This document shows, in pieces, positions 1 to 28,348 of a DNA stretch of 29,945 nucleotides. Numbering within the stretch: position 1 is the stretch's first letter; every line of letters begins with the position of its first letter. The notes under the pieces are model-generated. The model was not told the origin of the DNA and did no database searches. It was given only the letters and a program-made list of their open reading frames with translations. The position numbers and the translations under genes were made by a program. This DNA is from a virus (taxonomy: Duplodnaviria; Heunggongvirae; Uroviricota; Caudoviricetes), in IMG/VR virus record IMGVR_UViG_2671181114_000018; one strand, 5' to 3'.

Positions 1-1365
1 TTATGGACGGAGGCAATACTCGGCAATTCGAAGCGCTGAAATGTGCTTTTCATGGATCATGTCGTTCCCGCATCCGCATTCATTCTCACATGGTTCTCGC
101 ACCCATACACCATCGCTATTTTTTCGGTAGAACCATCCAGGACGAAAACCTGCGTTCTGCATATACATCCCTGGGTGAACGACAACTAATTCACATACTT
201 CAATCAGGTCAGTCTCATGGCATATGATTCCAATTCCCTTCTGATACACGGCCTGAAAGTCTTTATTGACATGTTTTATTAGTTCATCTATCTCAAAAGC
301 GACGTAATTTTTTCCTTTAAGAAGCCGCTCTATCTTTGGCAAGCGCAATGGAGAATTGTCATTATCTGTACCAAAGAGAATTATGCTGGGTGAACTTATT
401 GTAACGCCGCCTGTTAATTCGCCTCTCATCGTTTCAATAGAGTCAAATAGCTCAGCTATTTTCCCACCACGATAGAAAGCAATACTAGGAGAAACGTTTT
501 TCACATAACTATCATGATATTCAGGTAATTCAAGTGACCGCTTGAATACAGGAATATCTATATTTGGATCCCTTAATTGTTCAACTTCCCGCCAAGGTAA
601 GTCTAATAACTCCTTGAGGATAGGATCCTCCGTAACTGACGGGAATAAGGAATTTGTATCAGTGATTGCATTCAATACGGCATATTGTTTTAAAAGTGAC
701 CGACTAGCTTTTATCTGTGCAATAAAGCAATTTTCTGGAACTGGCTCTCCATATAGCGGCCCTAGTAACCAAGCATCTTGGGCCTGCATTCTGGGTCGGA
801 AACCCTTAATTTCAATATCAGAAAGATCAACCAAACCAAGACGAGATGCTAGTGATTTATCTAGAATGTAGAGATATCCATCTCCATCTTCATAATAATA
901 CCTTACCGCTTTTTTTATCAGCCATATGGGGTTTTCATTACAGTCTTCGCACATGTCTATCTTTGGCGGTGGAGATGGTTTTATTGACAGTGAACATTTA
1001 TGACTCGCAAACCAAGCGGCAACTGCAGGGTTAGTGGTACAGTCAACATAGAATGATCTCCATCCATAGTGTTGTAACAGTGCCTGTACATATTCCAGAT
1101 CGTTTGCATGGCTACCAATTACTCCCTCAAGCACACTTGCAGCATAGCTAATCCACTTTATCATCGTTGACTTGTTACATTCATCGCGATCAAAAGAAGC
1201 AAGTACGGATGGTACCTCCTGCTTACCATAGAGAGAATTTTGACCTCGAAATAATACATTGTCACCAAACTGTGCAATTACAGCTTCCAGCTCACTAATA
1301 GTTCTGACCTCAAATTGTTCCAATTCTTCCCTCTCCCCTGAATTCGCAATCATGGCATCTTGCAC
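1..1365 (-). CDS. Hypothetical accessory protein with N-terminal FRG-like motif and Cys-rich C-terminus (candidate defence/cargo gene)
   Basis: Complete 454-aa ORF (stop = revcomp of nt 1-3). Contains 'VLFRGQNSLYGK' near the N-terminus, which I recall as the FRG domain signature, and Cys clusters (CEDCNENP; PCENECGCGNDMIHEKH). Visibly AT-rich compared with the phage structural genes. Function not known from sequence. Confidence 0.45.
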   Translation of the reverse strand: MQDAMIANSGEREELEQFEVRTISELEAVIAQFGDNVLFRGQNSLYGKQEVPSVLASFDRDECNKSTMIKWISYAASVLEGVIGSHANDLEYVQALLQHYGWRSFYVDCTTNPAVAAWFASHKCSLSIKPSPPPKIDMCEDCNENPIWLIKKAVRYYYEDGDGYLYILDKSLASRLGLVDLSDIEIKGFRPRMQAQDAWLLGPLYGEPVPENCFIAQIKASRSLLKQYAVLNAITDTNSLFPSVTEDPILKELLDLPWREVEQLRDPNIDIPVFKRSLELPEYHDSYVKNVSPSIAFYRGGKIAELFDSIETMRGELTGGVTISSPSIILFGTDNDNSPLRLPKIERLLKGKNYVAFEIDELIKHVNKDFQAVYQKGIGIICHETDLIEVCELVVVHPGMYMQNAGFRPGWFYRKNSDGVWVREPCENECGCGNDMIHEKHISALRIAEYCLRP

Positions 1366-1728: not shown

Positions 1729-2345
1729 TCCCCCTCAATTTTTGAAAAAATCAGAATCGGTCAGAAATCACCCTGATTTGTTGGTAGTTTTGTATATCTA
1801 TCTGTTAGTGACTTGAACACTGGAGCGTATACGTTAATGCAGGTATGGCGATGGTTCAGGCTGTGCAAAGTATTTCAGTTCCGCATTTCACTGCCATTCC
1901 GCGCCAGAGCACGTCAGTTAAGGCCTGGACACTTCCACGCACTGACCTGATCTCGCTGCGACCATTACGTAAAAAGTCACGTAATCGCTGTTGTTCCCGC
2001 ATGTAATCAGGCTCCGATATTTTTCATCCACAGCCGGCAATCACACAAAAACTGAAATCCTCGAAATCTGTTTCACACATTTCAGTTGGCGAACTACTGC
2101 CAAAGCCCCAGCGCTGGCGCGGTCTGGCGATGTGTTTTGTACCACCGGAAAAACTGAAATCATTCTCAACACGAAAACCGCAGGCGGGTGCGGTGTAGCG
2201 CCGTTTTCGTCACTTCCGCCGTTATTTCGTCGTGGCAGGCTGCATCAGCGCCTTGCTGCGCTTCTGAAGTTAATCAGGTTGGGATGAACGGGTGCAGATA
2301 ATTGCGGCGCTCAGAATGCGTCTGGTGAGGTCTGGGAATGGGTAC

Positions 2346-2370
2346 AAAAAAGCCCGCATTATGCGCGGGC
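2346..2370 (-). terminator. Rho-independent terminator closing the minus-strand late (tail) operon
   Basis: Plus strand aaaaaa-gcccgc-attatgc-gcgggc: 6-bp GC stem (2352-2357 / 2365-2370) with 7-nt loop. On the minus strand the hairpin is followed by TTTTTT, 12 nt after the stop of the 2382-4085 gene. Confidence 0.6.
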
Positions 2371-2381
2371 TGATGGGATGA

Positions 2382-4085
2382 TCAGGCGATTATCTTCTGG
2401 TACTTACTCCGGGTCTGACCTGCCTTCTCCGCCGTCTGTGTGAATGCGCCGGCATTGGTTGGCGTACCAACGCTGGGGTGTGAATGGCTCGCACACTGCT
2501 GCGCCAGCTCGGCCAGTAAATCAATGGTGTCCAGCATCATGGTCAGCGTGTTAACGCTCTCACTGCCAATATGGACGGTTGGCCCCATAATCTGCTGACC
2601 GCCCGATGCCACCGATTTACGTAATGCAGCAATCTTTTCTGTCAGGGTTCCCCCCACATCAACATCCACGGCACCGGCCACTTTCGTGGATTGTTTGCCG
2701 GTTATATCGGCTTCGTCATTCCCCTCAATGCTGGCCAATCTGTTGCCCTTCACGGCCTGGCTATAATCACCGGCACTGACCTGCTGAATGGCTCCGGCCA
2801 TCAGGGTGGCGGTACCCAGCACCGTGGTTTTATCAGTGGCTTTAACTGTCGTTTCACGGCTGACCAGATCACGCTGTTCTGTATCGGCTTTAACCGTCCG
2901 CGCCATCGATGTTTCGCTGATGGTCTGATCGGTCTGCCGTACCCAATCGCCAGCCTGGGTAACGCGCTGCGACACTTCAGCCCGCTGCTGTTGCAGCTGC
3001 TCACCGGGCTTAACATCCGGCAGGCTGGTACCATCCGGCAGTGTCTGCCTGATAAACGGTTTATCAGGTCGCCCCCCGGTAAACGCAACTTCAACCAGCG
3101 TCCCTTCTGGCGGGAACTGGAACATGCCAGAGTCATTCCCGGCCATAGGTACCGGCAGCGGCACCGCTGAATAAACCGGCGTCTGGTTGTCCGGGTTGCC
3201 GTCTGCATCAAGCAGCTGCACATCAACGGCATAGCGCGGCCGGAACGGATCGGCAAAATTACCACTTTTCACAGTCTCACTGGGTGCCACCACTCTGGCC
3301 AGTTTTGGCAGGTGCAGCCCGGAAGCCAGTTCCGGGTAATGGCTTTCAATCTGGCGCTGTGCCGGTGTTTTCTGTAATGGCTGACCTGTTGCGCGGTTTC
3401 TGGGTGTCCAGGTGATGGCCATGGTGTCATTGGTCAGATGAACTTTGGTCACGCGTTCTCCGTTCAGCTCCACACCCGGCCGCAGACTCTGGATCACTGG
3501 CAGCGTCATGGAATGACCGCCAGCCGCCCCCTGGCTGAACTCTGCCGGGATATCAACCGGACGATCGGCGAACATCGCTTTTTCCGCGCCGCCCACATAC
3601 AGGGAACCATCCGGCAACTGGTACCAGATGTAATCCGGGATACTGAATGCTTTGCCCAGATTATTCAGCAACTGATAGCCAGTGCCATTGTGGGTGAAAT
3701 GGGGGATCGGCTTATCGCTGTATGGGGCATCCGGCACACTGACAGCAATTCCGCTGTTTTCCTCCAGCCAGATGGCTACCTTGCGCAAAGTGGGATGCTG
3801 AAATGAACATGGCCACATCCTTTCAAATACGCCGACCAGCTCGCGCACAAACAGACGCTGAAAACCGTTTTCGGCGGGTTGTGCGCGTTCCACATAGCCG
3901 GTAAACCAGCGCAAAAGCAGATCGGAATAACCCACATCCAGCCGCACCAGTTTCCCGGTGTAATCCGTGGCTGTCTGTGCGGTGATAAACCCCCGGCCAC
4001 AGCTGCTCAGCTCCAGCACCAGGCTGGCATCAGCCAGATGAACTTCATCCGTTGAAAGGTACAGGCGTTTAACTGGTTTCATCAT
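2382..4085 (-). CDS. Baseplate central hub-spike protein (gpV/gp5-type OB-fold domain with N-terminal extension; VgrG-like arrangement)
   Basis: 567 aa, last gene of the late operon. 'EGTLVEVAFTGGRPDKPFI' resembles the gpV/gp5/VgrG OB-fold signature (xVLVxFxxGDxDRPxV); C-terminal 'CASHSHP' resembles the HxH metal-binding spike apex. From memory; no HMM run. Confidence 0.5.
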   Translation of the reverse strand: MMKPVKRLYLSTDEVHLADASLVLELSSCGRGFITAQTATDYTGKLVRLDVGYSDLLLRWFTGYVERAQPAENGFQRLFVRELVGVFERMWPCSFQHPTLRKVAIWLEENSGIAVSVPDAPYSDKPIPHFTHNGTGYQLLNNLGKAFSIPDYIWYQLPDGSLYVGGAEKAMFADRPVDIPAEFSQGAAGGHSMTLPVIQSLRPGVELNGERVTKVHLTNDTMAITWTPRNRATGQPLQKTPAQRQIESHYPELASGLHLPKLARVVAPSETVKSGNFADPFRPRYAVDVQLLDADGNPDNQTPVYSAVPLPVPMAGNDSGMFQFPPEGTLVEVAFTGGRPDKPFIRQTLPDGTSLPDVKPGEQLQQQRAEVSQRVTQAGDWVRQTDQTISETSMARTVKADTEQRDLVSRETTVKATDKTTVLGTATLMAGAIQQVSAGDYSQAVKGNRLASIEGNDEADITGKQSTKVAGAVDVDVGGTLTEKIAALRKSVASGGQQIMGPTVHIGSESVNTLTMMLDTIDLLAELAQQCASHSHPSVGTPTNAGAFTQTAEKAGQTRSKYQKIIA

Positions 4086-4630
4086 TAACCCAAAGCATCA
4101 TTGACGGGTTTCAGCACCCGTTTTTCAAACCACGTCAGTTTTTCTTCATCTTCTCCAGCGCTCTGGCCGCCAGGCTGTCCGGCATTACCGGCCGTCTGTT
4201 TTTTGGCAGACGTTTTACCTGTTGCCCTGGCTTCCCGTTTTTCCTGCACGCTGATATGTTCTGCCAGCGTAAACGTGACCAGCCAGGCCATTTTCCCGTC
4301 CTGCTGCGAGGCATCTAGCATTCCGCTGAATGTCGCCTCACGAAAATTCACGGCTCTGGCCACTTCATGCGCCACGCGGTATTTCTGGCGGTTGCCTCCG
4401 GCATCCGTGGCACTGGCCAGTTCGAAAATACGCTTCAGGATCTCCGGGCTTTTAAGCGGAATTTCGCCACTGATACGCAGCTCTTTCCCTTTTGCCCCCT
4501 GTTCTGATTTGGTTGTGGCACTTGTCTGGCCGGACTGGTCTTTATCCTGAAACTGCTGCGAGACGGTCACGCGCATGTTTTTCAGCTGGATAGCCTCACC
4601 ATTAAGCGCCAGCGTTGGGATCGAAGTCAT
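4085..4630 (-). CDS. Hypothetical tail/baseplate-associated protein
   Basis: 181-aa ORF, start overlapping the next gene's stop inside the tail operon. No motif recognised; assignment by operon context only. Confidence 0.3.
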   Translation of the reverse strand: MTSIPTLALNGEAIQLKNMRVTVSQQFQDKDQSGQTSATTKSEQGAKGKELRISGEIPLKSPEILKRIFELASATDAGGNRQKYRVAHEVARAVNFREATFSGMLDASQQDGKMAWLVTFTLAEHISVQEKREARATGKTSAKKQTAGNAGQPGGQSAGEDEEKLTWFEKRVLKPVNDALG

Positions 4631-5327
4631 GAATCATTCCCTTTATTCCATCCAGATTGTCACCGACCAGCATCACCGCCGCAGTGTAGACGGCTGACGG
4701 TTGCGGGATATCCTTTACCAGTTCCAGCAGCGTGGTGGCCGTATCACCGGTGCTGGTAAACACCCATGCTCTGGCACTTTTCCCCTGCAAATCATTCAGC
4801 CCGCTGGCCACATCACTGATCAGGTTGTCGCGCAGCTGCGTGAACTCACCCAGTTGCTGCTTTAGTCCGTCCAGGCTGAATCCCGCACTGGCCGCTTTTT
4901 GTGCCTGGCTGACAGCCGCCGCAGACAATGCCGCCCTGCTGGTTGGCACAGACAGCGGAATGGCCACCGGCAACCCCGCCCCGGCTTTAGCGGGGATCTG
5001 CATTTTTTCGATGGCCAGCGCCGCTGCGGATTGTGCCAGGCGTTTTACCTGAGTGAATGCCGGTGCCGGGAAAACATCGACCAGACCGTTGAGACGGGTC
5101 ATAAAATTCTCATGCGTCTGGCCTGTCACCATCATGATCATCACATCGGCATTCCCGCCCGTTCCGGTAAGCCTTTCAGCAAGATAGCTAACAGCATTCA
5201 CCGGGCTGAGATATGCCCCGTTATCCGTCTGTTGCCCCAGACCGTTTATCCATGGATGCGCCGGAACTATGGAACAATTCAGCGCGGCCAGTGAGTCAGT
5301 AAACGCCAGACGCGCTTCACGCCACAT
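4602..5327 (-). CDS. Hypothetical tail/baseplate-associated protein
   Basis: 241-aa ORF between the fibre chaperone and the hub-spike gene, co-oriented and overlapping. No motif recognised; true start may be internal. Confidence 0.3.
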   Translation of the reverse strand: MWREARLAFTDSLAALNCSIVPAHPWINGLGQQTDNGAYLSPVNAVSYLAERLTGTGGNADVMIMMVTGQTHENFMTRLNGLVDVFPAPAFTQVKRLAQSAAALAIEKMQIPAKAGAGLPVAIPLSVPTSRAALSAAAVSQAQKAASAGFSLDGLKQQLGEFTQLRDNLISDVASGLNDLQGKSARAWVFTSTGDTATTLLELVKDIPQPSAVYTAAVMLVGDNLDGIKGMIHDFDPNAGA

Positions 5328-5661
5328 CAGGCACCTCTGGCCAGAAAGGATCCGAAGTATCCACCCTGTTCACCATGACGCTATATCGCTCCCACGCATC
5401 CAGAAGCAGGATCTCTTTTTCGGTCGCCATACCAAGTCTTACAGACCTTTCAAGCAGGGCTATGACAGAATTCGCCTCAGCCAGAAGACGAGATTTATCA
5501 CTCTCAGCCTGCTCCTTTATCTGTTCCGCTGTAAGGGGCTTATTCAGTATTGCCTTCGCTTCCTCTTCAGTTATCGCAATTAACCCGCGGCGGTAGTATT
5601 TTTTATCAGCATCATCTTCATAAGCGTAAATTTCATTTTTACTCGTTTTAAAATACTTCAT
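5317..5661 (-). CDS. Tail fibre assembly chaperone (Tfa; P2 G / Mu U-like)
   Basis: 114 aa directly downstream of the fibre gene (3-nt gap); size and C-terminal '...DPFWPEVPDVA' typical of the enterobacterial Tfa family. Confidence 0.7.
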   Translation of the reverse strand: MKYFKTSKNEIYAYEDDADKKYYRRGLIAITEEEAKAILNKPLTAEQIKEQAESDKSRLLAEANSVIALLERSVRLGMATEKEILLLDAWERYSVMVNRVDTSDPFWPEVPDVA

Positions 5662-5663
5662 CG

Positions 5664-7451
5664 TTATCTTAACTCCGTCCAGGCCCTCAATATCGTAGAG
5701 ACACCAGAAACATCAACCCGGTAGGTAAAGCCCGGTGGGACAATGAAAAACGCGGTTGCAAGCGATGTGTCTAAAGCGGTTGCACCACCACCACCAAATT
5801 CAATCCCATTGATATAAGCATAAAGGTTTGCTGACGTTCCCCCAGTAATTCGGACATATACTGCTATCGGAAACCCTGTGGAATTGGTGTATGTCACCCC
5901 GGTTCCACGAGATGATTTTAAATCCTGTAATGTTTGCCCTTTACCTAGAGATGGGTAAGTTTGTATTGCAGTAGTTACTGCCGCCTGCGGCATGACTAAA
6001 GAATTTGATCCCCCCATTGAATTAACAAGCTGAACAAGACCTGCATTTGTGATAGTTGCCCCGTCCGCTGTGTATTTTGACTGCGCCAGTTCATATGCAG
6101 ATTGCGCCTGTTTCAGCACATAATTTACAGCGGTGGTGGTGGCAGCGGTTTTTGAATCAGGCGCACCTGTATTGTCACTGAGCATGACAATACCTTTCTG
6201 CGACGTTGTCGCTTCAACTGCACTCCATTTCTTTTTAGCAATTTCCGCTGCGGCCATTGCCGTGTCATAAGCAATTTTTACCGCACCTGACGTTGCAGCA
6301 GTCTCGTTACTTTCATCTGTTACTCCACCATTAAGACGAACCAGCCCCTTTTGTGAGGTAGAAGCATCGTAAATACCTATGTTTTGCCTGAATAATGCAG
6401 GGTTAAGGATATCCCCACCATTCCGCTCTTTAGCAAGACGCGCATTGGCATTATCCATCGCGATTTTGACTGCTTTCGGTGTAGCGGCCTGTCCTTCACT
6501 AGTGCTGTCTGTCGCGCTGCTTAACTGGGTGAATCCCTTCGCGCTGGTCGTGGCATCAGGATGATTTCGGGACTGCTCATGCTTTTTAAGCGCATCGCTG
6601 GCCTGTTGTTCGTTCAGCGTCCCTTTGGGCCGTAAATCCGTGATATTGCCATTCACATCAATGCTGGCCACGGCAAACACATAATGCTGTACGCCGTTCT
6701 GCACGTAATCCGTCAGGTTTTCCGCCACGGTGATTTTGCACTGAGCATTCCACATACTGGTAAGCGATCCTGTCCAGCACACATCCAGCCAGACTTTGAC
6801 CGGTTTTGTCGTCACGGTGATATTCTGATTGTCAGCCAGTGACGTACGCAGTCCTGCCACATAGCCGGTACCTTTGGTCACAAAGAACTGATTGCCCGTT
6901 TTACTGACCAGCCAGCCATCGCCAAAGAATGCCGCAGCCCCGTAAATATCCGTGTTTTCCAGGCGCTGACGTTCATCCATTCCGGCCATTCGCGCCGTGA
7001 AATCAATCTGCCAGGTCTCAGCCGGTGTATTAATCCCGGTTTCAGTCTGTGCGCCGTTGTACTCCATCAGAAACGAGCGGGTAAGCACGTTCCCCTGTTG
7101 CCCTTCCGCTGTTTTCAGCTTCTGCTGCACAGGCGCATGAACAATCATGGCCAGGGTGCCACTGGCCTTATTCAGCAGACCGATCCAGTTAAAACTGAAG
7201 TCGCCCACATCCGCGCCCAGAACGGTGGAATACACCACGCCGTTTTCATTCACCACGCCAGTGCGGGTAACAGGCTGCCGGTGCACAATCTGCTCCACAG
7301 GTGGCAGTGCTTCATTCCGGTCAACGGGTGTATCCGGGTTCAGTCCTGGCACATTTGCAAACACAAATTCATCCAGTAACACCGGCTCGCCGGTTGCACC
7401 CTGCTGCGCTTTCCAGTGCTCAAATGCCAGCGTGATAGCTGTCTGTGACAT
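5664..7451 (-). CDS. Tail fibre protein (P2 H-like central motif)
   Basis: 595 aa; internal 'HEQSRNHPDATTSAKGFTQLSSATDSTSEGQAATPKAVKIA' matches the conserved P2 gpH-family motif (HEQSRRHPDA..AKGFTQLSSATNSTSETLAATPKAVK) as I recall it. Followed by Tfa. Confidence 0.8.
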   Translation of the reverse strand: MSQTAITLAFEHWKAQQGATGEPVLLDEFVFANVPGLNPDTPVDRNEALPPVEQIVHRQPVTRTGVVNENGVVYSTVLGADVGDFSFNWIGLLNKASGTLAMIVHAPVQQKLKTAEGQQGNVLTRSFLMEYNGAQTETGINTPAETWQIDFTARMAGMDERQRLENTDIYGAAAFFGDGWLVSKTGNQFFVTKGTGYVAGLRTSLADNQNITVTTKPVKVWLDVCWTGSLTSMWNAQCKITVAENLTDYVQNGVQHYVFAVASIDVNGNITDLRPKGTLNEQQASDALKKHEQSRNHPDATTSAKGFTQLSSATDSTSEGQAATPKAVKIAMDNANARLAKERNGGDILNPALFRQNIGIYDASTSQKGLVRLNGGVTDESNETAATSGAVKIAYDTAMAAAEIAKKKWSAVEATTSQKGIVMLSDNTGAPDSKTAATTTAVNYVLKQAQSAYELAQSKYTADGATITNAGLVQLVNSMGGSNSLVMPQAAVTTAIQTYPSLGKGQTLQDLKSSRGTGVTYTNSTGFPIAVYVRITGGTSANLYAYINGIEFGGGGATALDTSLATAFFIVPPGFTYRVDVSGVSTILRAWTELR

Positions 7452-7460
7452 AAAAACTCC

Positions 7461-8054
7461 TTACAAACCTGCGCTGAATGTCGCGCTTCGGGTTTCCGTC
7501 CCTGCTAACGAAGCCGGATAAACCACATATTCCCCCTGATCCCATCCGGCTCTGATAACCATTTTTTCCGATGTGATCACCTCAAACTGATAACGACGGC
7601 ATGTTCGCCCGTACTGCCGGATTATCTGGATAAGCAGCTGCGTGTTGTCCGCTATCTGGCTGTCTGTCACACGTACCAGGAGCACATCCCAGTCAATACC
7701 CGGCTGACGCTCCCGCAGCTCCACATATCCAATGCCCAGCCGTTCAAAGATGTTGATAAATCCCTCAACGGAACCGGCATCACGCGCATTCACGAAGGCA
7801 AACGCCACCCGTTTGCGGAACAGACTCAATGGCTCACCATCAAAGCGGGTTATGTCCCGGTCATACGCCAGCAGGTTCAGTAATGCCGGTGTGCAGGTCA
7901 GCGGATCAAACTGGTTCAGTGGCCAGGTTATCCAGCCGTAAACCTCCGCCCAGAATCGCCGGGCTGTTTTCAGCAGCTTGTTCGGCTCCCCCTGATTCAT
8001 CCAGGAAGGCAGCACCATCCCGGCCAGCTTTTTCATGAACTCATTCATTCTCAA
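7461..8054 (-). CDS. Baseplate/tail protein (Mu gp48-like, DUF2313 / P2 I-position)
   Basis: 197 aa between the J-like gene and the fibre gene, the conserved position of the P2 gpI / Mu gp48 / YmfQ family. Synteny-based. Confidence 0.5.
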   Translation of the reverse strand: MRMNEFMKKLAGMVLPSWMNQGEPNKLLKTARRFWAEVYGWITWPLNQFDPLTCTPALLNLLAYDRDITRFDGEPLSLFRKRVAFAFVNARDAGSVEGFINIFERLGIGYVELRERQPGIDWDVLLVRVTDSQIADNTQLLIQIIRQYGRTCRRYQFEVITSEKMVIRAGWDQGEYVVYPASLAGTETRSATFSAGL

Positions 8055-9225
8055 GACTCACTACCAGTGACTTCAGGCGCGGCACATTCAGCTCACTGGT
8101 AATGTCACCCAGTGAAAAGGACAGCGAATCCGCCAGCGCAAAGGTTTTGTGGATCTCCCGTCCCAGCTGAGAAAACGAGAACCGCGAATATGGCCACGTC
8201 TTTCTGACGTCAAAATCAGCGTTTTCACGAAAAGCACAGCGGATCATGTTTTCAATCCCGGCCTTCAGGCTGTTACGTTCGTCGTCTGTCAGGTTGGCCA
8301 GATTTCTGACGTACACCGTCACCGCCAGATCGTGGCGAGTTTCCGGCATGGCGTAACACTGCATATCGTCACCGTGGCCGTGATGCCCCTGCGTGTTGAT
8401 GTAATCATTCACCGCATTCACAAACGGCGCGGAAGTCACCCCGCTGTCCAGCAATAAATAGGCATTTGCGGTACCCGGTCCCCTCGGCGCTTCATGCTCA
8501 AAGAAAATCCGGTCAATACTCAGCCCGGCAACACCGGCAATCATTGAACGGTAAACCGCATCCGTGTGGTAATTGCCCACCAGGTTGAACTGGTTGCGGC
8601 AGCGTTCACGCAGTTCATCATCACTTTCTTCATCGGCACCCGGCACTGTCAGCCAGTTTTCCTCGCTGGCCACATGACTGATGCCGTCAACGGCCACAGG
8701 TAAAATGCGGTAATACCCTGGCGCAAGGTTATAGGCTCCCCCGGCTCCGGTGGCTTTCACCGGCAGCAGGGCACTGGCCGTGCCGGAAGGGATCACCACA
8801 TCGGCCGTGGTCGCCAGTTCGTACACCCTGCCGTTAATGCGTTCAGTCTGGATAACTGTCCCGGCCTTAACCGTCACAACGGCTTTGGTATCCTCCTTAA
8901 AGAAACGGATCACACCCTGTGCAGCGCTGGCGGGTTTCGCCGTCACGTTCACCGCCCAGGCCAGCAGACGCAACATGCTCCCGCTGGCCGTGGCCACAAA
9001 CATATTGGCCAGTACCGTGAACACCAGAACATCTTTCAGCCACATCACCGGTGCAGTCACAATGGCTGTGATTAAGCGCCAGAACGGTGACATGCGGGAT
9101 GTATTGGTGATGATGCCCTCCTCAGCCGCAATAGCATTAAAGCGATCCCGTACTTCAGCTTCTGTCACCGGCATCCCGCTGGTTTTCACTACTTCCTCAA
9201 AATCAACCTGGGGCTTTTCCGTCAT
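8041..9225 (-). CDS. Baseplate J-like protein (P2 J / Mu gp47-like)
   Basis: Track ORF is 8041-9279 (412 aa); likely start is the internal Met 'MTEKPQVDF' at 9225, giving an ATGA overlap with the upstream gene's stop. Size and position fit Baseplate_J. Confidence 0.6.
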   Translation of the reverse strand: MTEKPQVDFEEVVKTSGMPVTEAEVRDRFNAIAAEEGIITNTSRMSPFWRLITAIVTAPVMWLKDVLVFTVLANMFVATASGSMLRLLAWAVNVTAKPASAAQGVIRFFKEDTKAVVTVKAGTVIQTERINGRVYELATTADVVIPSGTASALLPVKATGAGGAYNLAPGYYRILPVAVDGISHVASEENWLTVPGADEESDDELRERCRNQFNLVGNYHTDAVYRSMIAGVAGLSIDRIFFEHEAPRGPGTANAYLLLDSGVTSAPFVNAVNDYINTQGHHGHGDDMQCYAMPETRHDLAVTVYVRNLANLTDDERNSLKAGIENMIRCAFRENADFDVRKTWPYSRFSFSQLGREIHKTFALADSLSFSLGDITSELNVPRLKSLVVSLENE

Positions 9226-9551
9226 AAATCCACCTGATAAGAAAGTGTGCCAAAGTCGTATGTACTGGCAGTCACCCAAAGGCGTTTCTGACTTTCTTCA
9301 TTGATTTCAACTGTGCCAGGCACTATGCGTTCATCATTTTCAACCAGTAATTCAAGCTGGGTAAAAATATCTGCCCTCAACGTCGGGCTTCGCTCCGCAA
9401 TCAATTGTGTTGCCAGTCCGCTTTCAATAATGGCGTGCACAATATCCTGCCCGATACTTTTACGGTTATTGCATAATTCAGGCTCATGACCTGCATTCAG
9501 TGAGAAATCACCATTATTAATAAGCAGGTCAATATAAAGAAATTCACTCAC
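9222..9551 (-). CDS. Small baseplate protein (Mu gp46-like / GPW-position)
   Basis: 109 aa directly between the tape measure and the J-like gene, translationally coupled on both sides. Synteny-based. Confidence 0.5.
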   Translation of the reverse strand: MSEFLYIDLLINNGDFSLNAGHEPELCNNRKSIGQDIVHAIIESGLATQLIAERSPTLRADIFTQLELLVENDERIVPGTVEINEESQKRLWVTASTYDFGTLSYQVDL

Positions 9552-11587
9552 GCATTAAGCTCCTGCCATTCCATTAGCTGGGAGGGTGAAAGTGCTTCTT
9601 TGGTATGAAAATGCACTTCACCAATTTTACGGCTGTTATCCGTCACTGATTTAGAGTTACTGCTTATTGTTTTACTGATACCACCGCGATCCACATCCTT
9701 TAACTTTCCACCTGTTGAAAGGGTATTGGCAGTCAATGTTTCACTGGTATTTGCAGTATGGTTGTTCTGTATTAATGAAGGTACCACCCCACCTGTAATT
9801 TTATTTATTTCCGGCGAAACGGTTGTGGACAGGTCAATATTGACGCCCGGAATTTTATTCAGTTTTTCAACAATCCAGTTCCACGACTTCAGAAATCCGC
9901 TTTTAATGGTCTGCCAGACGTTATCAAACAGGGAAACAATACCGCTGGCCATCCCGCTTAATGCCTGTGAGGGTGAGAACCCGGCCAGCAGCGCAATAAA
10001 ACTGTTCCAGCCGTCTTTAATCCACTGCCATGCAGCGGAGAACACGCCGGCAAGCCATTCCACCACGCCCGCCACCGCCGTAAACGCTGCAGTATTCATC
10101 ACCGCCGCTTTCACATCATCCCAGTGTTTAATCAGCAGGTAACAGCCCGCAGCCAGCAGGGCTATCGCCCCGATAACCAGCAGCACCGGCCAGCTCATCA
10201 GATTAATACCAATGCCGGCCATAATCGCCGCCATGCGTACGGCCAGCAGCGTGCCACGAAGGAATTTAAGCGTGATGTTCCATGCCGCGACGGCTTTTGA
10301 GGCAATCCAGACAGTGGCGGTGTATATCTTCGTGACTGAAGTCAGCGTCTTCCAGAGAGCAATCGCGCCCAGCTTAATAAGTTTTGAGACGCCCAGAACG
10401 ATGTTCGCTACCGCGCCGGCAGCAGCAAACCCCAACAACGCCATAGCCGCATAGCCGATAACACGCGCAATGTTGGGAAACAACTGCATCCAGCGGGCAA
10501 AGGTCTGCCCCATATCGGCCAGGCGATTCAGCACCGGATACAGGACGGGGATCAACGTCAGCCCAATGACGGTCTGAATAGACTTAAGGATCTGAACAAA
10601 GCGATCCCACGGTTTCACCAGTTTCCCGGCCATCTCCTGTGTACGCTTCAATCCGTCAGAACCGCCCAGCTCAGTGATATTACGTTGCAGTAAGGCCACA
10701 TTGCCGTAAAGATGTTTCACCACCGCTGAACTGTCACCAAATGCCGCATCCAGCTCCGCCTGGGCTTTCAGGTTCCCTTCCAGGCTTTTGCCATACTTAC
10801 CCTGTAACTTGATCAGCATTTCAGGCATGGACAGCATTTTGCCGGTGGCATCCGTAAAGGACAGCCCCAGCTTTTTACCGCCCTCAATGGCTCCGGTCAT
10901 GAAGCCTTCATAAGCGCTGCTGGCTTCCGTTCCCAGCGTTCGGTTAAGCTGCCCCAGTACGGCCAGTTGTTCATCCAGCCCCACGCCGTAGTTGGTACCC
11001 ACGCCGCGCGCACCTTCCATCAGGTCTTTGATGACGCCCATTTCAGTACCGAAGACCTTGCGCATGTACACCATTTTTCCGGCCAGTTGTTCAGCAAACT
11101 GGACTTTACCCAGCCGTGCCGCCTCGGCGGAAAAGTTGCCGTACATCTGCCCCATAAACTCTGCGGTATCGGCAGATGTTGATTTCAGTGCAAACGCCAG
11201 CGTGTTGGCGACTTTCGTCACCTTCGGCAGTTCATTCCCGGTCAGGCCGGCAATGGCGGTGTTAATACTTTCCGTGGACTGGACAAACTCCACCGCGCTG
11301 GCGCCGTAGGTCATACTGAACCGCAACGCATCACGCTGGACGGCCTTTAAAGCCTGATCATCAATGCCTTTTGCGGCTGCGTCATTCAGCGCGTCATACA
11401 TCTCAATAGCCGGCGACAACGCCCCTTTGATGGCCATCCCTGTGCCGGCTAAAGCCAGCGCACCGCCCCCAATCTGCGTAAAGGCCACTTTCGATTTTTC
11501 AGCAAAGCCTGTAACACTGCTCTGCACCTGCTTTAACGGGCGCGTCAGTTTATCAATCAGGCTTAAGGTAAAATCTAACTGTTTCAT
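9548..11587 (-). CDS. Tail tape measure protein
   Basis: 679 aa, Ala/Gly-rich helical N-half, several hydrophobic segments in the middle (e.g. 'LLVIGAIALLAAGCYLLI'), directly downstream of the frameshifted chaperone. Confidence 0.8.
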   Translation of the reverse strand: MKQLDFTLSLIDKLTRPLKQVQSSVTGFAEKSKVAFTQIGGGALALAGTGMAIKGALSPAIEMYDALNDAAAKGIDDQALKAVQRDALRFSMTYGASAVEFVQSTESINTAIAGLTGNELPKVTKVANTLAFALKSTSADTAEFMGQMYGNFSAEAARLGKVQFAEQLAGKMVYMRKVFGTEMGVIKDLMEGARGVGTNYGVGLDEQLAVLGQLNRTLGTEASSAYEGFMTGAIEGGKKLGLSFTDATGKMLSMPEMLIKLQGKYGKSLEGNLKAQAELDAAFGDSSAVVKHLYGNVALLQRNITELGGSDGLKRTQEMAGKLVKPWDRFVQILKSIQTVIGLTLIPVLYPVLNRLADMGQTFARWMQLFPNIARVIGYAAMALLGFAAAGAVANIVLGVSKLIKLGAIALWKTLTSVTKIYTATVWIASKAVAAWNITLKFLRGTLLAVRMAAIMAGIGINLMSWPVLLVIGAIALLAAGCYLLIKHWDDVKAAVMNTAAFTAVAGVVEWLAGVFSAAWQWIKDGWNSFIALLAGFSPSQALSGMASGIVSLFDNVWQTIKSGFLKSWNWIVEKLNKIPGVNIDLSTTVSPEINKITGGVVPSLIQNNHTANTSETLTANTLSTGGKLKDVDRGGISKTISSNSKSVTDNSRKIGEVHFHTKEALSPSQLMEWQELNA

Positions 11588-12032
11588 CCTGAACCTTTAA
11601 ACGCGGTGCTTATTCCGTTAGCAACCGCTATACGCGTATTTTCCCAGTGGCGATTATCCAGCCAGATAGCGGCGGAAATATCATCCACGGAATCCTGACC
11701 ATGCGGTAAATAATGACGCCGTAATATCAGATATTGTTCGAGTCCGTTCTGTTCAATTGCCCGGACTCGCTTTGTCAGTTTTTTACTTCAATTTCCAGTT
11801 CGGGCGCATAAAGCTCATTAATTTTCCCTGCAAGCTGAAGCGCTGCCCCCGGACGTTTAAGAATATCTTCCAGCGCTTCTTTACATTCTGGTACAACAAT
11901 GCGCATAAGATAACTATGGGCTGGAGCTACTTTATTATCCATCGCCATTTCGTTGATGAATTTATTATAAGCCGTCTGATTTGGTTCAAAGGTAATGTCT
12001 TTTTTACATACAACCAGATTAATTTTTTCCAT
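11584..12032 (-). CDS. Tail assembly chaperone, long form made by programmed -1 ribosomal frameshift (P2 E+E' / lambda G-GT analogue)
   Basis: Minus strand reads gtA AAA AAC tga: perfect X XXY YYZ heptamer (plus 11778-11784) as the last codons. The -1 frame from there is open for about 64 codons across the otherwise ORF-free 11588-11774 gap and stops at TGA (11584-11586) overlapping the tape-measure ATG. Confidence 0.6.
11775..12032 (-). CDS. Tail assembly chaperone, short form (P2 E-like)
   Basis: 85-aa ORF immediately upstream of the tape measure gene, ending '...EIEVKN*' with a slippery heptamer at its 3' end. Confidence 0.6.
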   Translation of the reverse strand: MEKINLVVCKKDITFEPNQTAYNKFINEMAMDNKVAPAHSYLMRIVVPECKEALEDILKRPGAALQLAGKINELYAPELEIEVKN

Positions 12033-12318
12033 AAATAATATTCTCTCTTAAATTAATTTCATCAACCAGCGTGTTATGACGTGCAGCACATTGCCCGTAT
12101 AACTCCAGATATAGTGTCAGTAATTCCGCCGCATCTTTTCCCTGCGTGCCATTCAGGCGCGGCAGCTGCGTGGCACATTTAGTTTTCAGGTTTTCCTGAT
12201 AACGTACGTTCGGTACTGGTGACGGCATCGTTGTACATGCTGACAAAATCATCAGACAGGCACTTATTGGTAAACACCGGCTTAACCACTTCCGTACGGA
12301 TTTCACGCGGTGGCGCAT
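12019..12318 (-). CDS. o-spanin (Rz1-like outer-membrane lipoprotein), overlapping the i-spanin in another frame
   Basis: Lipobox 'LMILSAC' followed by Pro-rich 'TTMPSPVPN'; the ORF starts inside the 3' half of the i-spanin gene and extends past it. True start may be internal. Confidence 0.55.
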   Translation of the reverse strand: MRHRVKSVRKWLSRCLPISACLMILSACTTMPSPVPNVRYQENLKTKCATQLPRLNGTQGKDAAELLTLYLELYGQCAARHNTLVDEINLRENIIYGKN

Positions 12319-12511
12319 TTTTCAGTGCCTCCAGTTTGTCTTCCAGCCGGCGACCAGAAATACCGGCAATATCAGCCAGCCTTTCCCCGGTCGCAGTGGC
12401 CGCTTTTGAGACGGTCAGATCGATGCTGTCCCGTTGCCAGCCGGCCGTTTTCCAGCCGGCTAAAAATGCCAGAACAAGGGTGAATAACCAACCTGACACC
12501 ACGCGATCCAT
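12179..12511 (-). CDS. i-spanin (Rz-like)
   Basis: 110 aa with N-terminal transmembrane segment 'WLFTLVLAFLAGW' and a charged helical periplasmic part; immediately downstream of the endolysin. Confidence 0.6.
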   Translation of the reverse strand: MDRVVSGWLFTLVLAFLAGWKTAGWQRDSIDLTVSKAATATGERLADIAGISGRRLEDKLEALKNAPPREIRTEVVKPVFTNKCLSDDFVSMYNDAVTSTERTLSGKPEN

Positions 12512-12852
12512 CAGCGCACCCCGTTGTGTTCCAGGCTGAAATGATTACCATCAGGACGGGTTTTAAAACGTCCGCCCCAGCTCCCGCCCAGCGATTCCCA
12601 GTATTCCCCCAGTGGCAGATAATCTTCCGTTCGGGTTTTGTATTCGCCCTTCACAAACAGATTAAAATCCACGGCCAGACGCTGGGTGTGCAGACTGTTG
12701 GAAATACCGCTGCCCTTCTTCGCGTTCAGTGCCGCCTGTTCCGGCGTCCGGTACGCCTCACCGAACGTCAGCCACATCCCGTTGGCGTTGGCATACTGGA
12801 TCAACAAAGCAATCATTGATGTAAACCGTTGTTGTTTCTCGCTCAGCGTCAT
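12511..12852 (-). CDS. Endolysin, peptidase M15 family (L-alanyl-D-glutamate peptidase type)
   Basis: 113 aa with 'HTQRLAVD' (H-x6-D) and 'DGNHF' zinc-ligand motifs typical of M15/VanY-type endolysins; lies between holin and spanins. Confidence 0.75.
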   Translation of the reverse strand: MTLSEKQQRFTSMIALLIQYANANGMWLTFGEAYRTPEQAALNAKKGSGISNSLHTQRLAVDFNLFVKGEYKTRTEDYLPLGEYWESLGGSWGGRFKTRPDGNHFSLEHNGVR

Positions 12853-13145
12853 TTCCCTGCCCCTTTATCAAAAATCCCTGTAAGGCCACGTTTGCGCAGC
12901 CAGGCTTCCACCACGTTCTGCCCCAGAATACCCAGCGCGGAACCAATGCCGGCCAGCGCAAGTGGGTGAATATCCGGGACAAAGTACAGTGCCACGCCGG
13001 CAATTAGTGACAATCCGCTGCCAACAATGACACGGCCAGTGACCAGCCGAAGGGTGATCGGCTCGTCGCTGTTGAGTAATTTCCCCAGTGCAATCATCGC
13101 CCCCATGACAGCCAGTGCAATGAACCCTTTTTCATACTCCTGCAT
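12849..13145 (-). CDS. Holin (putative)
   Basis: 98 aa with 2-3 hydrophobic segments ('FIALAVMGAMIALG', 'VIVGSGLSLIAGVALYFV', 'LALAGIGSALGILG') and a charged C-terminus; directly upstream of the endolysin. Confidence 0.6.
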   Translation of the reverse strand: MQEYEKGFIALAVMGAMIALGKLLNSDEPITLRLVTGRVIVGSGLSLIAGVALYFVPDIHPLALAGIGSALGILGQNVVEAWLRKRGLTGIFDKGAGK

Positions 13146-13157
13146 CCCTGCTGCCTC

Positions 13158-13613
13158 TTATCCAATCAGGTTTTCCGTGGCTTCCGCTTCCAGATACGGC
13201 ACCCCGTTGATGTTCACGAACTTAGGACTTGTCACGAAGTATTTGATTTTGTGCGTGGATACGCTGCCACCCTTCGGATCACCATCCAGTACACTGTTGA
13301 GCTGGAGCTTGTTCCCGAAGGTTTCCACCTTCATTTCTTCGCTGCCGGCTTTGGCGTAAAAAAGGAAATCCACCGGGGGAATACCCCGCCATGAACCCGC
13401 TGAACGGGCTTTGGCCGTCAGTACCTGAAGCACTTTTGAGCTGACTTCAATTTCCCCTTCGGCGGCAACATCGCCGTCAATATAGCCGTCCGGGACACCG
13501 CGTGTCTGGGCTGCGGCGCTGTTGTCGGTGATATCCAGCGAAATTTTTTCAATGTGGATCAGGTCGCCGTCCACGTAGACGTCAAAGGACATCCCTGAAA
13601 TACGTTTGGTCAT
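13158..13613 (-). CDS. Tail tube protein (putative)
   Basis: 151-aa ORF directly downstream of the putative sheath gene, overlapping stop/start. Sheath-tube gene-pair logic; no motif verified. Confidence 0.5.
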   Translation of the reverse strand: MTKRISGMSFDVYVDGDLIHIEKISLDITDNSAAAQTRGVPDGYIDGDVAAEGEIEVSSKVLQVLTAKARSAGSWRGIPPVDFLFYAKAGSEEMKVETFGNKLQLNSVLDGDPKGGSVSTHKIKYFVTSPKFVNINGVPYLEAEATENLIG

Positions 13614-14737
13614 GCGCTGGCCTCCAGACTCGCATCCAGTAACAGACTGATGGTGATTTGCAGTGGTACTTCATACGTACGCACCACAATGTAGATATCC
13701 ACCGCCTTTTTGTTCTTCCAGACAATGGTCACGTCACCGTCCTGCGGTGGCTTCACTTCGCCCGGAAATGACACGCCGTTAATACTGGCCGCCGTGGACA
13801 TTTCACGCAGCGGACGGGCAAACAGCGTCTGGTGTGCGGCAATACTGCCCGGTGTACTGTTCAGTGAGCGATCGGCAATCTTACCGATGGCCAGCAGACG
13901 GACACGACGTGCTGCCTTATCCACAATACGCAGCGTCTCAATGGACTGATAATCACCGCCCTCAACGTCGAGTGTACGACCGTCAGACCAGTAAAAGCCG
14001 TCATAGTCCGGATACCACATCGGCACGCTGTAGCGCTGTGCCTCCAGCGCCTGAAGGGTCGCCAGCTCCAGCGTTGCCCCTGCTCCATCTTTCGGCAGTT
14101 CGTCGCTACCCAGGCTCAGTAATGGTCCGGTTTTTACCCGCGCCGGACTGTCAGCGATGGTAACAGCGCGATTACAGAGGCGACCGGCAAGCACGCCCGG
14201 ATCATTCCCCCAGAGGCGCGGAACCAGTTGCACCGATTTTTCAGCAATACCCTGCTGAAGGGTGGACAGACGTTTCAGATAATCCGCCTGTGATTCATCC
14301 TCCTGCATTCCCTGTACGGCCAGAATGAACCACACCCAGCGGCCGTATTTTGCAATCAGTTCAGATCGCAGCGTTGCCGCCTGGTTAATCTGCTCTTTTG
14401 CCGCCACATCATCAGACAGCACCACACCTTCCACCGAACAGGAAACCTGTGCAGCTTTGACGGCATCAACCCACGCCCCCGGCTCACTGTCAGCGGCCAG
14501 CACATGGATAAATCCCCACCAGTTCTGTCCGGCGTTCGCCAGTGCGGCCAGAACATCGCTTTTTAACGGGCTGTCCCCCTCACCCAGCAGCGCATCAAAA
14601 TCGCTCTGTGCGTTAACTGCCTGTGTTTTCCCTACATTTTTGGTTCCCGTACCGATAAACAGCAGCGTGCGCTCCACTTCCGTGGTTTCACCCAGCAGCT
14701 GATTTACCTGGTTTACGGTCACAATTGGCCAGGTCAT
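13610..14737 (-). CDS. Tail sheath protein (putative)
   Basis: 375-aa ORF followed by a small tube-size ORF, downstream of the tail-completion genes. Synteny-based. Confidence 0.5.
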   Translation of the reverse strand: MTWPIVTVNQVNQLLGETTEVERTLLFIGTGTKNVGKTQAVNAQSDFDALLGEGDSPLKSDVLAALANAGQNWWGFIHVLAADSEPGAWVDAVKAAQVSCSVEGVVLSDDVAAKEQINQAATLRSELIAKYGRWVWFILAVQGMQEDESQADYLKRLSTLQQGIAEKSVQLVPRLWGNDPGVLAGRLCNRAVTIADSPARVKTGPLLSLGSDELPKDGAGATLELATLQALEAQRYSVPMWYPDYDGFYWSDGRTLDVEGGDYQSIETLRIVDKAARRVRLLAIGKIADRSLNSTPGSIAAHQTLFARPLREMSTAASINGVSFPGEVKPPQDGDVTIVWKNKKAVDIYIVVRTYEVPLQITISLLLDASLEASA

Positions 14738-15438
14738 GATCTCCCCCTGATATCCTGCGCGTTAACATCCCAGCCGAACCCGATAGCCTGAAGCTGTCGC
14801 GCCAGCGCTTTGTTAAAGTCATCCTGACCGATCCCCAGAAATCCCCTGGCAGGTAAATCTATCTGCCAGGATGTTTTGACCGGCTTGTCCTCCAGTATCC
14901 GGATAAGCAAACCTGCCTGTCTGGCGGTCATTTTTTCCTGTATTTCCTTATATCCGGGCTTGCGCCAGCGCTTGCCGCGCCTGACTTTATACCCGGCCTT
15001 ACGCAGACGTTTCGCCTGTCGCAGTGATGCAGGTTTATCCCCCTGCTCACGGCCTTCCACCTGCTTGCGGTTGACGGTCACGCTCATGCCGTTCTGCTGG
15101 ACATAACCCACCACGCCGGCAGGCAGATTTCCCTTCGCATTCCGGTAATTACCACCGGTCAGATACAGCCTGACAGACTCCGTTTCTGGCATTTCACGGA
15201 TGCGGATAAGTTTCGGCATATTGCGCAACATTTTGCCTTTACGCCGGGTCTGTCTCCCCTGCCACTTATCCCCCTCCGGTGACTGCTGATTACGCACATT
15301 GCGCTTTGCTGCGGCTTCCACGCCGTATTTCGCCATTCGCCACAGCAGCCGGCGACGTTTGGCAGGAGGCAAATCCAGCTTTTTCAGCGCCTCCTGTAGC
15401 TGGCGGAACTGTTCCTGGTTCAGTTCGCCATTTATCAT
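14734..15438 (-). CDS. Virion morphogenesis / tail completion protein (P2 S-like)
   Basis: 234 aa, very basic C-proximal region, positioned after the R-like gene as in P2 (L-...-R-S). Confidence 0.5.
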   Translation of the reverse strand: MINGELNQEQFRQLQEALKKLDLPPAKRRRLLWRMAKYGVEAAAKRNVRNQQSPEGDKWQGRQTRRKGKMLRNMPKLIRIREMPETESVRLYLTGGNYRNAKGNLPAGVVGYVQQNGMSVTVNRKQVEGREQGDKPASLRQAKRLRKAGYKVRRGKRWRKPGYKEIQEKMTARQAGLLIRILEDKPVKTSWQIDLPARGFLGIGQDDFNKALARQLQAIGFGWDVNAQDIRGRS

Positions 15439-28233: not shown

Positions 28234-28348
28234 CCATTTACCGCGAATACATGCACCACAAGTGCATGCTACTGGCAGCTAAATTTTGCACCAGACATTA
28301 CAAAGAGTTAGGAACGAGAAGAGAACGAACCCATCGGAGGGCTTTCTT

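Follow-up and report, generated by a model that had tools for sequence, protein, structure and literature searches.

Among the contractile-tailed phages described so far, close points of comparison for the locus analysed here are HP1 and its relatives, P2 and Mu. In the P2 record, only the spike gene V lies before W/J/I, as a separate gene at the head of the V-W-J-I-H-G cluster, and U and the hub gene D end the F operon (T-U-D), after H and G. In Mu, hub and spike are two genes that follow the tape measure/gp43 genes and precede the wedge genes, so that the order reads tape measure, gp43, hub, spike, gp46–48 and fibre. For HP1, it was stated in 2023 that homologues of gpD and gpV are fused into one protein (PMC10612066). 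Mass spectrometry of purified ACA1 virions in the same study detected a split hub (gp48), the spike (gp49) and the homologue of HP1 orf33 (gp46, with only two spectra), and did not detect the ORF34 homologue (PMC10612066). In spikes with a C-terminal HxH motif an Fe ion is buried and no separate tip protein is required; the P2 spike gpV reaches the periplasm (PMC12407873).

The stretch of DNA analysed here (29,945 nt, referred to as the window) is an almost complete, P2-like prophage of the HP1/ESSI-2 type (Peduoviridae), with a tail region approximately 85% identical at the DNA level to that of Escherichia phage ESSI2_ev239. The tail genes are all encoded on the minus strand, and were assigned by Pfam/PHROG matches as tape measure (9548–11587, PF10145), W-like DUF2590 (9222–9551), J (Baseplate_J, 8041–9279), I (Tail_P2_I, 7461–8054), fibre (5664–7451) and fibre chaperone (Caudo_TAP, 5317–5661). 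They are followed by the genes designated here ORF33 (241 aa, 4602–5327; family of HP1 orf33, K139 orf37 and ACA1 gp46), ORF34 (181 aa, 4085–4630; PF25759 HP1_ORF34 and phrog_1398) and ORF35 (567 aa, 2382–4085; phrog_2258, fused baseplate hub and central spike). The block from tape measure to chaperone (5317–11587) is in identical order to HP1 orf27–orf32, and the complete series of nine genes, on one strand, corresponds to HP1 orf27–orf35. The chaperone, ORF33, ORF34 and ORF35 genes overlap by 11, 29 and 1 nt along the series, a pattern of translational coupling, with the TAA stop codon of ORF34 sharing 1 nt with the ATG of ORF35. The late tail operon ends in an intrinsic terminator (2351–2371, minus strand; 8-bp stem with 6 G-C pairs, then TTTTTTG), which begins 11 nt past the ORF35 stop codon; in K139 a terminator is annotated at the equivalent site. 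A preliminary description of the window had listed these ORFs of 241, 181 and 567 aa after fibre and chaperone at the 3′ end; all three are present on the minus strand as described, and the order was confirmed by the Pfam/PHROG matches.

Orthologues of HP1 orf33, orf34 and orf35 were all found in the window by tblastn, Pfam, PHROG and alignment. Orthology extends to K139 orf37–39, phiO18P gp44–46 and ESSI2_ev239 gp03–gp01, in which order, strand and the place at the end of the operon are alike, and in HP1, K139, phiO18P and ESSI2_ev239 the ORF35 protein is a fused hub-spike with an HxH motif, as it is in the window. The differences within this group are in sequence and length: the HP1 proteins are only 23–41% identical to those of the window, the beta-helix of ORF35 is approximately 32 residues longer in the window than in HP1, and the window ORF33 is without the N-terminal extension of the K139 and phiO18P proteins. 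In ACA1 (gp46–gp49) and the Vibrio Canoevirus (gp39–gp41), the module of the HP1 subgroup is found at the same position as in the window, with the hub (approximately 230 aa) and the spike as separate genes; the Canoevirus also has no ORF33 and carries a Cys/His motif, not HxH, at the end of its spike. We therefore consider it highly probable that ORF33, ORF34 and ORF35 are the canonical 3′ end of an HP1/ESSI-2-type late tail operon, orthologous to HP1 orf33, orf34 and orf35, with ORF35 as a fused hub-spike.

The preliminary description had regarded the hub-spike module as displaced, on the premise that spike and hub precede W/J/I in P2 and Mu, and had proposed a rearranged or hybrid baseplate. 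The premise is correct for Mu and only half correct for P2, where V alone precedes these genes and D is last. P2 resembles the window in having the hub gene last, after the fibre genes, in a spike composed of OB-fold, beta-helix and C-terminal HxH, and in a W/J/I wedge; it differs in its separate V, in a D protein of 387 aa that matches Phage_GPD, and in the presence of gpX (LysM) and gpU. No LysM protein was found in the window. Compared with P2, the hub is still the last tail gene; the differences are that W-J-I-fibre-chaperone separate the tape measure from ORF34/hub, and that the spike forms an extension of the hub protein, where P2 has it as the first gene of the wedge operon.

Gene order was surveyed in HP1, K139, phiO18P, phi3, ACA1, ESSI-2-like phages and 80 IMG/VR contigs, and was found to be identical, strand included, in 86/86 related loci from at least ten host genera. 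Because the order is constant in all 86 loci, the arrangement represents a layout conserved throughout the HP1 subgroup of Peduoviridae and no local rearrangement or hybrid; none of the HP1-subgroup relatives was rearranged. A recent local rearrangement in this prophage, or a mosaic in which a foreign hub-spike block joined a P2-like wedge/fibre block, might be suggested by an order unlike that of Mu and, as to the spike gene, unlike that of P2, and also by the fibre chaperone, a swapped cassette that is approximately 41–48% identical to its counterparts in the nearest phages against 86–94% for the neighbouring genes. Both versions are nevertheless contradicted by the synteny survey, and run against an even GC content (0.55–0.57 across 2–5 kb), the translational coupling of the genes and the co-variation of ORF33/ORF34/ORF35 identities with those of I and the fibre N-terminus (Spearman 0.73–0.91), so that this origin is extremely improbable.

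ORF35 matched phrog_2258 at E 2.3e-277 and aligned full-length with HP1 orf35 in tblastn, at 40% identity. An AlphaFold2 monomer model (mean pLDDT 77) was compared with the PDB using Foldseek. Fused hub-spikes were matched at E 1e-17 to 1e-14 overall, with VgrG (9jg9_G) at E 1.8e-17 and further matches to AlgoCIS (7aef_q), PVC8 (6j0m_A) and Afp8 (6rbk_C), over 545–680 alignment columns. Spike structures were also matched, namely Mu gp45 (9ki1_V, E 2.8e-4) and pyocin (4s37, E 2e-2). As modelled, ORF35 is a VgrG-like hub and spike in one chain, with a gp27/gpD-like hub, an OB-fold, a beta-helix and an HxH tip; structure prediction thus placed the protein within the baseplate families that the preliminary description had named for it.

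VgrG, Afp8 and PVC8 were the best full-length structural matches and have in common with ORF35 the order of gp27-like hub, OB-fold and beta-helix. The two sides differ in that sequence identity is 10–14%, that the ORF35 hub is approximately 130 aa shorter than that of VgrG, that VgrG and Afp8 have a separate PAAR tip where ORF35 has an HxH tip of its own, and that ORF35 is a phage virion protein and VgrG a secretion-system component. Against the VgrG NCBIfam models TIGR01646 and TIGR03361, ORF35 scored 17.0 and 15.2 bits, with cut-offs of 121.8 and 186.35; the architecture is VgrG-like and the protein lies outside the T6SS VgrG family. The folds of Mu gp44/gp45 match parts of ORF35 (1wru and 9ki1_G at E 3e-9 to 3e-8; 9ki1_V as above).

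The predicted gp27/gpD-like hub domain (aa 1–235, nt 3381–4085, minus strand) was modelled at pLDDT 92–98, and in the predicted monomer its gp27-like fold was matched at a Foldseek probability of 1.00 to VgrG, Afp8, PVC8, Mu gp44 and the pyocin hub. Matches to stand-alone hubs included phiTE (9cuy_X, E 5e-11), E217 (8eon_E, E 3.4e-9), Mu gp44 (1wru, E 3.4e-9) and the pyocin R2 hub (6u5h_A, E 5e-6). The hub domains of the window, HP1, K139, phiO18P and ACA1 had no match in Pfam, including Phage_GPD (PF05954), at E ≤ 10, while P2 gpD, used as a control, matched Phage_GPD at E 6e-27. Comparison of the ORF35 family with P2 gpD and gpV by hhalign gave no signal, with profiles so shallow (Neff ~2) that this is no evidence of absence; the relatives gathered from viral contigs were all close (72–98% for ORF35 and 98–100% for gpD). 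Kinship of the hub domain to gpD is seen at the level of the predicted fold only. In most 50%-identity clusters, the hub domain is a separate protein of 225–245 aa. With approximately 235 aa, compared with 285–390 aa in solved hubs, the ORF35 hub is shorter, and some hub sub-domains may therefore be missing.

The gpV/gp5-type OB-fold occupies aa 258–385 (nt 2931–3314, minus strand; pLDDT 60–89). Phage_base_V (PF04717) was matched at aa 309–345 with E 1e-4 and 23.0 bits, slightly below the cut-off of 23.8, the family profile matched the VgrG OB region at E 2e-4, and TIGR01646/TIGR03361 gave weak matches. The gpV/gp5-like OB motif that had been read in the 567-aa protein was thus recovered. A triple-stranded beta-helix with gp5 C-terminal repeats follows at aa 387–508 (nt 2562–2927, minus strand), supported by a Gp5_C match of 24.1 bits, over the Pfam cut-off of 20.4, and by phmmer matches to the T4 gp5 beta-helix structures 4jiv and 1k28 (E 5e-10 over aa 413–508). 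In the AlphaFold2 monomer the beta-helix had pLDDT below 50, as an obligate trimer fold would give.

The tip module (aa 510–567, nt 2385–2558, minus strand; pLDDT 88–96) is predicted to be composed of a helix at 513–533, the HxH motif at H534/H536 (nt 2478–2486) and a helix at 545–566. The C-terminal HxH, likewise noted in the preliminary description, is invariant in HP1, K139 and phiO18P. All 116 close homologues have it, as do 10 of the 12 intact fused cluster representatives, a degree of conservation above that given by chance. The Pfam Apex model (PF18946) had no match in ORF35 and matched the control, P2 gpV. In P2 the HxH lies 12 residues from the C-terminus, within the Apex motif, whereas the ORF35 motif is 31 residues away from the end and flanked by the two predicted helices; the predicted tip is helix-HxH-helix, unlike the gpV-type apex. 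Given the lack of an Apex match and the helix-HxH-helix model, metal binding and tip geometry are treated as assumptions.

ORF34 matched PF25759 (HP1_ORF34) at E 3.1e-54 (183.8 bits, cut-off 27) and phrog_1398 at E 1.8e-73, and the family carries the name ‘baseplate complex protein’ in Pfam, NCBI and UniRef. Identity to the proteins of HP1, K139, phiO18P, phi3 and ACA1 was 27–49%, and 21 residues were invariant; the long tail of ORF34 is charged and of low complexity, and its terminal helix is conserved. The hub gene always has ORF34 as its immediate upstream neighbour, including in loci that lack ORF33 and the chaperone. No relative was found in the PDB using the single sequence and the profile. 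There is a real, if minority, possibility that ORF34 and P2 gpU (the family of the pyocin R2 ‘ripcord’ PA0626) are homologues that have diverged strongly, which would make the module P2 U-D with V fused on. ORF34 and gpU are alike in their place directly upstream of the hub gene and in size (181 and 159 aa), the ACA1 authors obtained an HHpred match of their ORF34 homologue to PF06995 at 15% identity, flagged as ‘uncertain’ (PMC10612066), and gpU-family proteins are real baseplate parts (6u5b_h, 6 chains, E 3e-13). A scan of genome contigs for gpU gave only 12 loci. In our comparisons by sequence and profile, ORF34 had no similarity to P2 gpU or PF06995, and ORF33 was likewise without similarity to PF06995; hhalign of the ORF34 family against gpU gave no signal, again with shallow profiles (Neff ~2) that provide no evidence of absence.

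ORF33 matched phrog_1677 at E 3.6e-76 and aligned with HP1 orf33; no match was found in the PDB with the single sequence and the profile, and the predicted model contains a long central segment of low confidence. It is missing in the Canoevirus, which is also without the chaperone, and its identity co-varies with the baseplate genes and not with the chaperone. ORF33 is best explained as an accessory virion protein of low copy number that is restricted to this lineage. Alternatively, ORF33 and/or ORF34 could be assembly factors (hub-spike or fibre chaperones) or proteins ejected with the DNA, and not parts of the finished baseplate. The ACA1 virion data, with ORF34 undetected and two spectra for ORF33, would fit such a role, as would the position of ORF33 directly after a fibre chaperone with which it is jointly absent from the Canoevirus, the charged tail and terminal helix of ORF34, and the low-confidence segment of the ORF33 model. 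However, ORF34 bears its baseplate name in three databases and is strictly kept beside the hub gene, and the ORF33 homologue is present in purified ACA1 virions (PMC10612066) and follows the baseplate genes in its variation; small low-copy proteins are moreover usual at this place in simple baseplates, as with ripcord-1/2 and the baseplate tube protein of Pa193. Both alternatives are accordingly improbable. The preliminary description had suggested that these two ORFs could be novel baseplate or ejected proteins: for the 181-aa protein, the baseplate part stands through PF25759, a catalogued baseplate family, and the novelty does not, all three proteins belonging to existing families (phrog_2258, PF25759/phrog_1398 and phrog_1677).

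By comparison with solved homologues, a trimer of ORF35 would plug the distal end of the tube and seed assembly of the W/J/I wedges, and sheath contraction would force it across the outer membrane, a metal ion at the tip (Fe in P2 gpV) presumably being held by its three HxH motifs. The covalent link between hub and spike would mean that both have to leave the tube end as one unit to open the channel for tape measure and DNA. ORF34 would be a core hub partner, most likely at the hub/tube/wedge junction, the place of P2-type gpU/‘ripcord’, as judged from position only. Tail assembly would be expected to require both ORF34 and ORF35, and ORF33 could be dispensable or linked to host range. No HP1-type baseplate was found among the solved structures searched. 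We tentatively suggest, as a possibility we consider rather unlikely, that the centre of the HP1-type baseplate differs from all solved simple ones (P2, pyocin, Mu and E217/Pa193), with a reduced hub of approximately 235 aa fused to the spike, an alpha-helical-hairpin tip presenting the HxH metal site in place of a gpV-type apex, and lineage-specific ORF34 (core) and ORF33 (accessory), with folds that have no solved baseplate counterpart, replacing gpU/ripcord and the LysM protein gpX. ORF34 might in that case supply hub or tube-adaptor elements absent from the short hub.

The three-gene module is ordinary and already known, the gpD-gpV fusion in HP1 being in print (PMC10612066), and current understanding of contractile tails is unchanged by the findings on ORF33–ORF35. 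Their main value is in annotation: copies of the three genes in enterobacterial prophages, numbering hundreds to thousands, are labelled ‘hypothetical protein’ and can be renamed as a fused baseplate hub-spike (ORF35), an HP1_ORF34 baseplate protein (ORF34) and a virion protein of the HP1 orf33 type (ORF33). A common assumption on gene order in P2 is also corrected, the hub gene being last in the P2 and HP1 subgroups alike.

One P2-like prophage fills nearly the whole 29.9-kb window, with the integrase gene (28286–29362) at the high-coordinate end together with genes for an HTH repressor, a primase-like protein, an Ogr-like regulator, the portal and the large terminase. Scaffold, capsid, small terminase and homologues of gpL, gpR and gpS are encoded on the minus strand, as are the sheath (DUF2586), tube (HP1_Orf24), holin, M15 endolysin, LysC-like spanin and tail assembly chaperone, after which come the tape measure, DUF2590, Baseplate_J, Tail_P2_I, fibre and Caudo_TAP chaperone genes. 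The operon ends on the same strand with ORF33 (241 aa, 4602–5327), ORF34 (181 aa, 4085–4630) and ORF35 (567 aa, 2382–4085), named after their HP1 orthologues and overlapping by 11 nt (upstream gene/ORF33), 29 nt (ORF33/ORF34) and 1 nt (ORF34/ORF35). ORF35 is the last tail gene and is followed by a strong intrinsic terminator (2371–2351); the preliminary description of the sequence is thus correct. Beyond the terminator GC content drops from about 0.55 to 0.40, which marks the prophage end.

Just past this end, a 454-aa FRG-domain protein (window 1–1365, minus strand, 40% GC; PF08867, E 1e-7) has a PADLOC match, to the candidate defence family PDC-S15 (E 3.7e-9). The AT-rich intergenic stretch between its gene and the prophage end (about 1380–1760) contains many short repeats, in either orientation, that resemble TGTGA(T/C)GG / CCATCACA. 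They may be bound by proteins or flank an att site, and one of them scores as a terminator-like hairpin (1535–1513). Flanked by the Ogr-like and primase genes, a 335-aa ORF of low GC (0.37–0.44; 22591–23598, minus strand) gave a weak PADLOC LmuB match (E 5e-5) and no match in the Pfam search, and probably represents moron or defence cargo.

The preliminary description had taken the hub–spike genes to be displaced, as part of a rearranged or hybrid baseplate, and the synteny comparison refutes this reading. Over 10 kb (window 2000–12000), DNA identity is 85% to Escherichia phage ESSI2_ev239 (Evevirus, Peduoviridae) and 83% to three of its sister phages. Full-length ORF35 homologues were found in 50 of 75 matching phage records, including HP1, HP2, K139, Kappa, phiO18P, F108 and phi3 as well as Yersinia, Salmonella, Cronobacter and Pseudoalteromonas phages. 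The annotated order of HP1, orf27 (tape measure), orf28–orf30, orf31 (fibre), orf32 (chaperone), orf33, orf34 and orf35, is exactly that of the window and recurs in the ev239, K139, phi3, phiO18P and ACA1 records; a tblastn survey of six phage records and 80 IMG/VR contigs returned this single order, always on one strand, at all 86 loci. The order is constant across the surveyed loci, and sequence identity in ORF33, ORF34 and ORF35 rises and falls with that in the I protein and in the N-terminal part of the fibre (Spearman 0.73–0.91); the layout is therefore inherited and characteristic of the HP1 subgroup. The element belongs, as an ordinary member, to a known lineage whose gene arrangement was already recorded when the HP1 and K139 genomes were annotated.

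Within the same region, the fibre assembly chaperone (5317–5661, minus strand) has only about 41–48% identity to that of the nearest phages, against 86–94% for the flanking genes, which points to exchange of fibre tip and chaperone as a cassette. In public records the ORF34 homologues of phi3 (8465–9004) and of the Canoevirus Vibrio phage 1.202.O (2940–3476) are mis-annotated as ‘nucleoid DNA-binding protein’ and ‘adenine glycosylase’, and the hub N-terminal part of the phi3 ORF35 homologue is unannotated.

The earlier contention that spike and hub genes precede W/J/I in P2 and Mu holds for Mu, where alone the order is TMP, gp43, hub, spike, wedge, fibre, but is only half right for P2. The P2 record gives a V operon (V-W-J-I-H-G) and an F operon (FI-FII-E-E'-T-U-D), so that U and the hub gene D are likewise the last tail genes, 3' of the fibre genes. 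The HP1 type differs from P2 in that W-J-I-fibre-chaperone (plus ORF33) lies between T and the gene in the U position, and in that the spike is joined to the end of the hub.

In ORF35 the Gp5_C repeats exceed the Pfam cut-off, Phage_base_V (OB-fold) falls slightly below it (aa 309–345), and T4 gp5 beta-helix crystal structures match aa 413–508 (E 5e-10). The N-terminal 245 residues had no Pfam match even at E<=10, whereas P2 gpD matches Phage_GPD. An exhaustive search with the N-terminal domain alone returned 252 clusters at E<=1e-3; among the best 150, stand-alone proteins of 225–245 aa predominate and only about 14 are fused forms (470–612 aa), so this is a discrete module that usually has its own gene, as in ACA1 (gp48, gp49) and Canoevirus. 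ORF35 was modelled as a monomer with AlphaFold2 from a 112-sequence alignment, giving pLDDT of 92–98 (aa 1–235), 60–89 (OB region), <50 (beta-helix, as expected for a trimeric fold predicted as a monomer) and 88–96 (aa 510–567). Foldseek against the PDB matched fused hub–spikes over 545–680 columns (VgrG 9jg9, 1.8e-17; AlgoCIS 7aef_q, 3.7e-17; PVC8, 8e-16; Afp8, 3.5e-14; VgrG1 4mtk, 6e-14), stand-alone hubs at 5e-11 to 5e-6 (phiTE, E217, Mu gp44 (1wru), MuSo2, P1 and pyocin R2 hub 6u5h) and the spikes Mu gp45 and pyocin 4s37; a family profile picked out the OB region of VgrG among PDB entries (E 2e-4). Structure prediction thus places the protein in hub–spike (baseplate) fold families, and the OB-fold spike motif reported for it is borne out by Phage_base_V, the family-profile match to VgrG and the structural matches. 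On the model, ORF35 joins a gp27/gpD-type hub to a gpV/gp5-type spike in one chain, as VgrG does. In profile comparison it falls outside the VgrG TIGRFAMs and Pfam Phage_GPD, and what it shares with VgrG and gpD is fold and architecture. The fusion in HP1 has been noted before (PMC10612066). The beta-helix is about 32 residues longer (aa ~445–476, window 2658–2753) than in HP1, K139 and phiO18P, and the extended region is unusually close to the T4 gp5 C-terminal beta-helix.

The C-terminal HxH motif described earlier was confirmed: H534-x-H536 is invariant in HP1, K139 and phiO18P, and occurs in the same context in 116/116 close homologues and 10 of 12 intact fused cluster representatives. In C-terminal HxH spikes three motif copies hold a buried Fe ion, a PAAR-like tip protein is not needed, and P2 gpV reaches the periplasm (PMC12407873). 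In ORF35 the motif lies 31 residues from the C-terminus between two confidently predicted helices, and the Pfam Apex model, which recognises gpV, found no match, so the tip, as modelled in the monomer, may be a helical-hairpin variant. Two fused representatives (P0377, P0378) and the Canoevirus spike (Vibrio phage 1.202.O, 4166–4861) end instead in CxxxxxCPFxGxPH...TVFAG, a Cys/His sequence that may represent a different type of metal-binding tip inside the family; a 65-aa ORF follows the Canoevirus spike gene.

ORF34 belongs to PF25759 (‘Bacteriophage HP1 ORF34 baseplate complex protein’, E 3e-54), with 27–49% identity to counterparts in six phages, 21 invariant residues, and a conserved core of about 130 residues followed by a charged low-complexity tail. 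Its gene lies immediately 5' of the hub gene at every locus examined, including Canoevirus, which has neither ORF33 nor the chaperone and in which the ORF34 gene comes straight after the fibre gene. P2 gpU occupies the same position, and members of its family do form part of baseplates: ‘ripcord’ PA0626 of pyocin R2 (6u5b, six chains) is a match at E 3e-13. Since homology between ORF34 and gpU was not detected in sequence/profile comparisons, and the HHpred match of the ACA1 homologue, a protein not detected in virions, was called uncertain by its authors (PMC10612066), we infer from position only that ORF34 acts at the hub/tube/wedge junction.

ORF33 falls in phrog_1677 (unknown function), matched nothing in Pfam, NCBIfam or PADLOC, and diverges faster than its neighbours (17–24% identity to the HP1, K139, phiO18P and ACA1 counterparts). 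It is accessory, being absent from Canoevirus, and its ACA1 homologue was found in purified virions by two spectra (PMC10612066). A LysM (gpX-like) protein, which P2-type baseplates carry, was not detected among the late genes (window 11600–16400), so ORF33 and ORF34 may, by analogy, replace the small hub-associated proteins of such baseplates, for example ripcord-1/2 and the baseplate tube protein of Pa193.

To what is established here, namely operon position, ORF35 fold and architecture, HxH conservation, ORF34 family membership and the accessory status of ORF33, solved homologues add a probable course of events. An ORF35 trimer would cap the tube and nucleate the W/J/I wedges, on contraction it would pierce the outer membrane, its tip stabilised by metal, and, with hub and spike covalently joined, the channel could open only once the whole hub–spike had come away.
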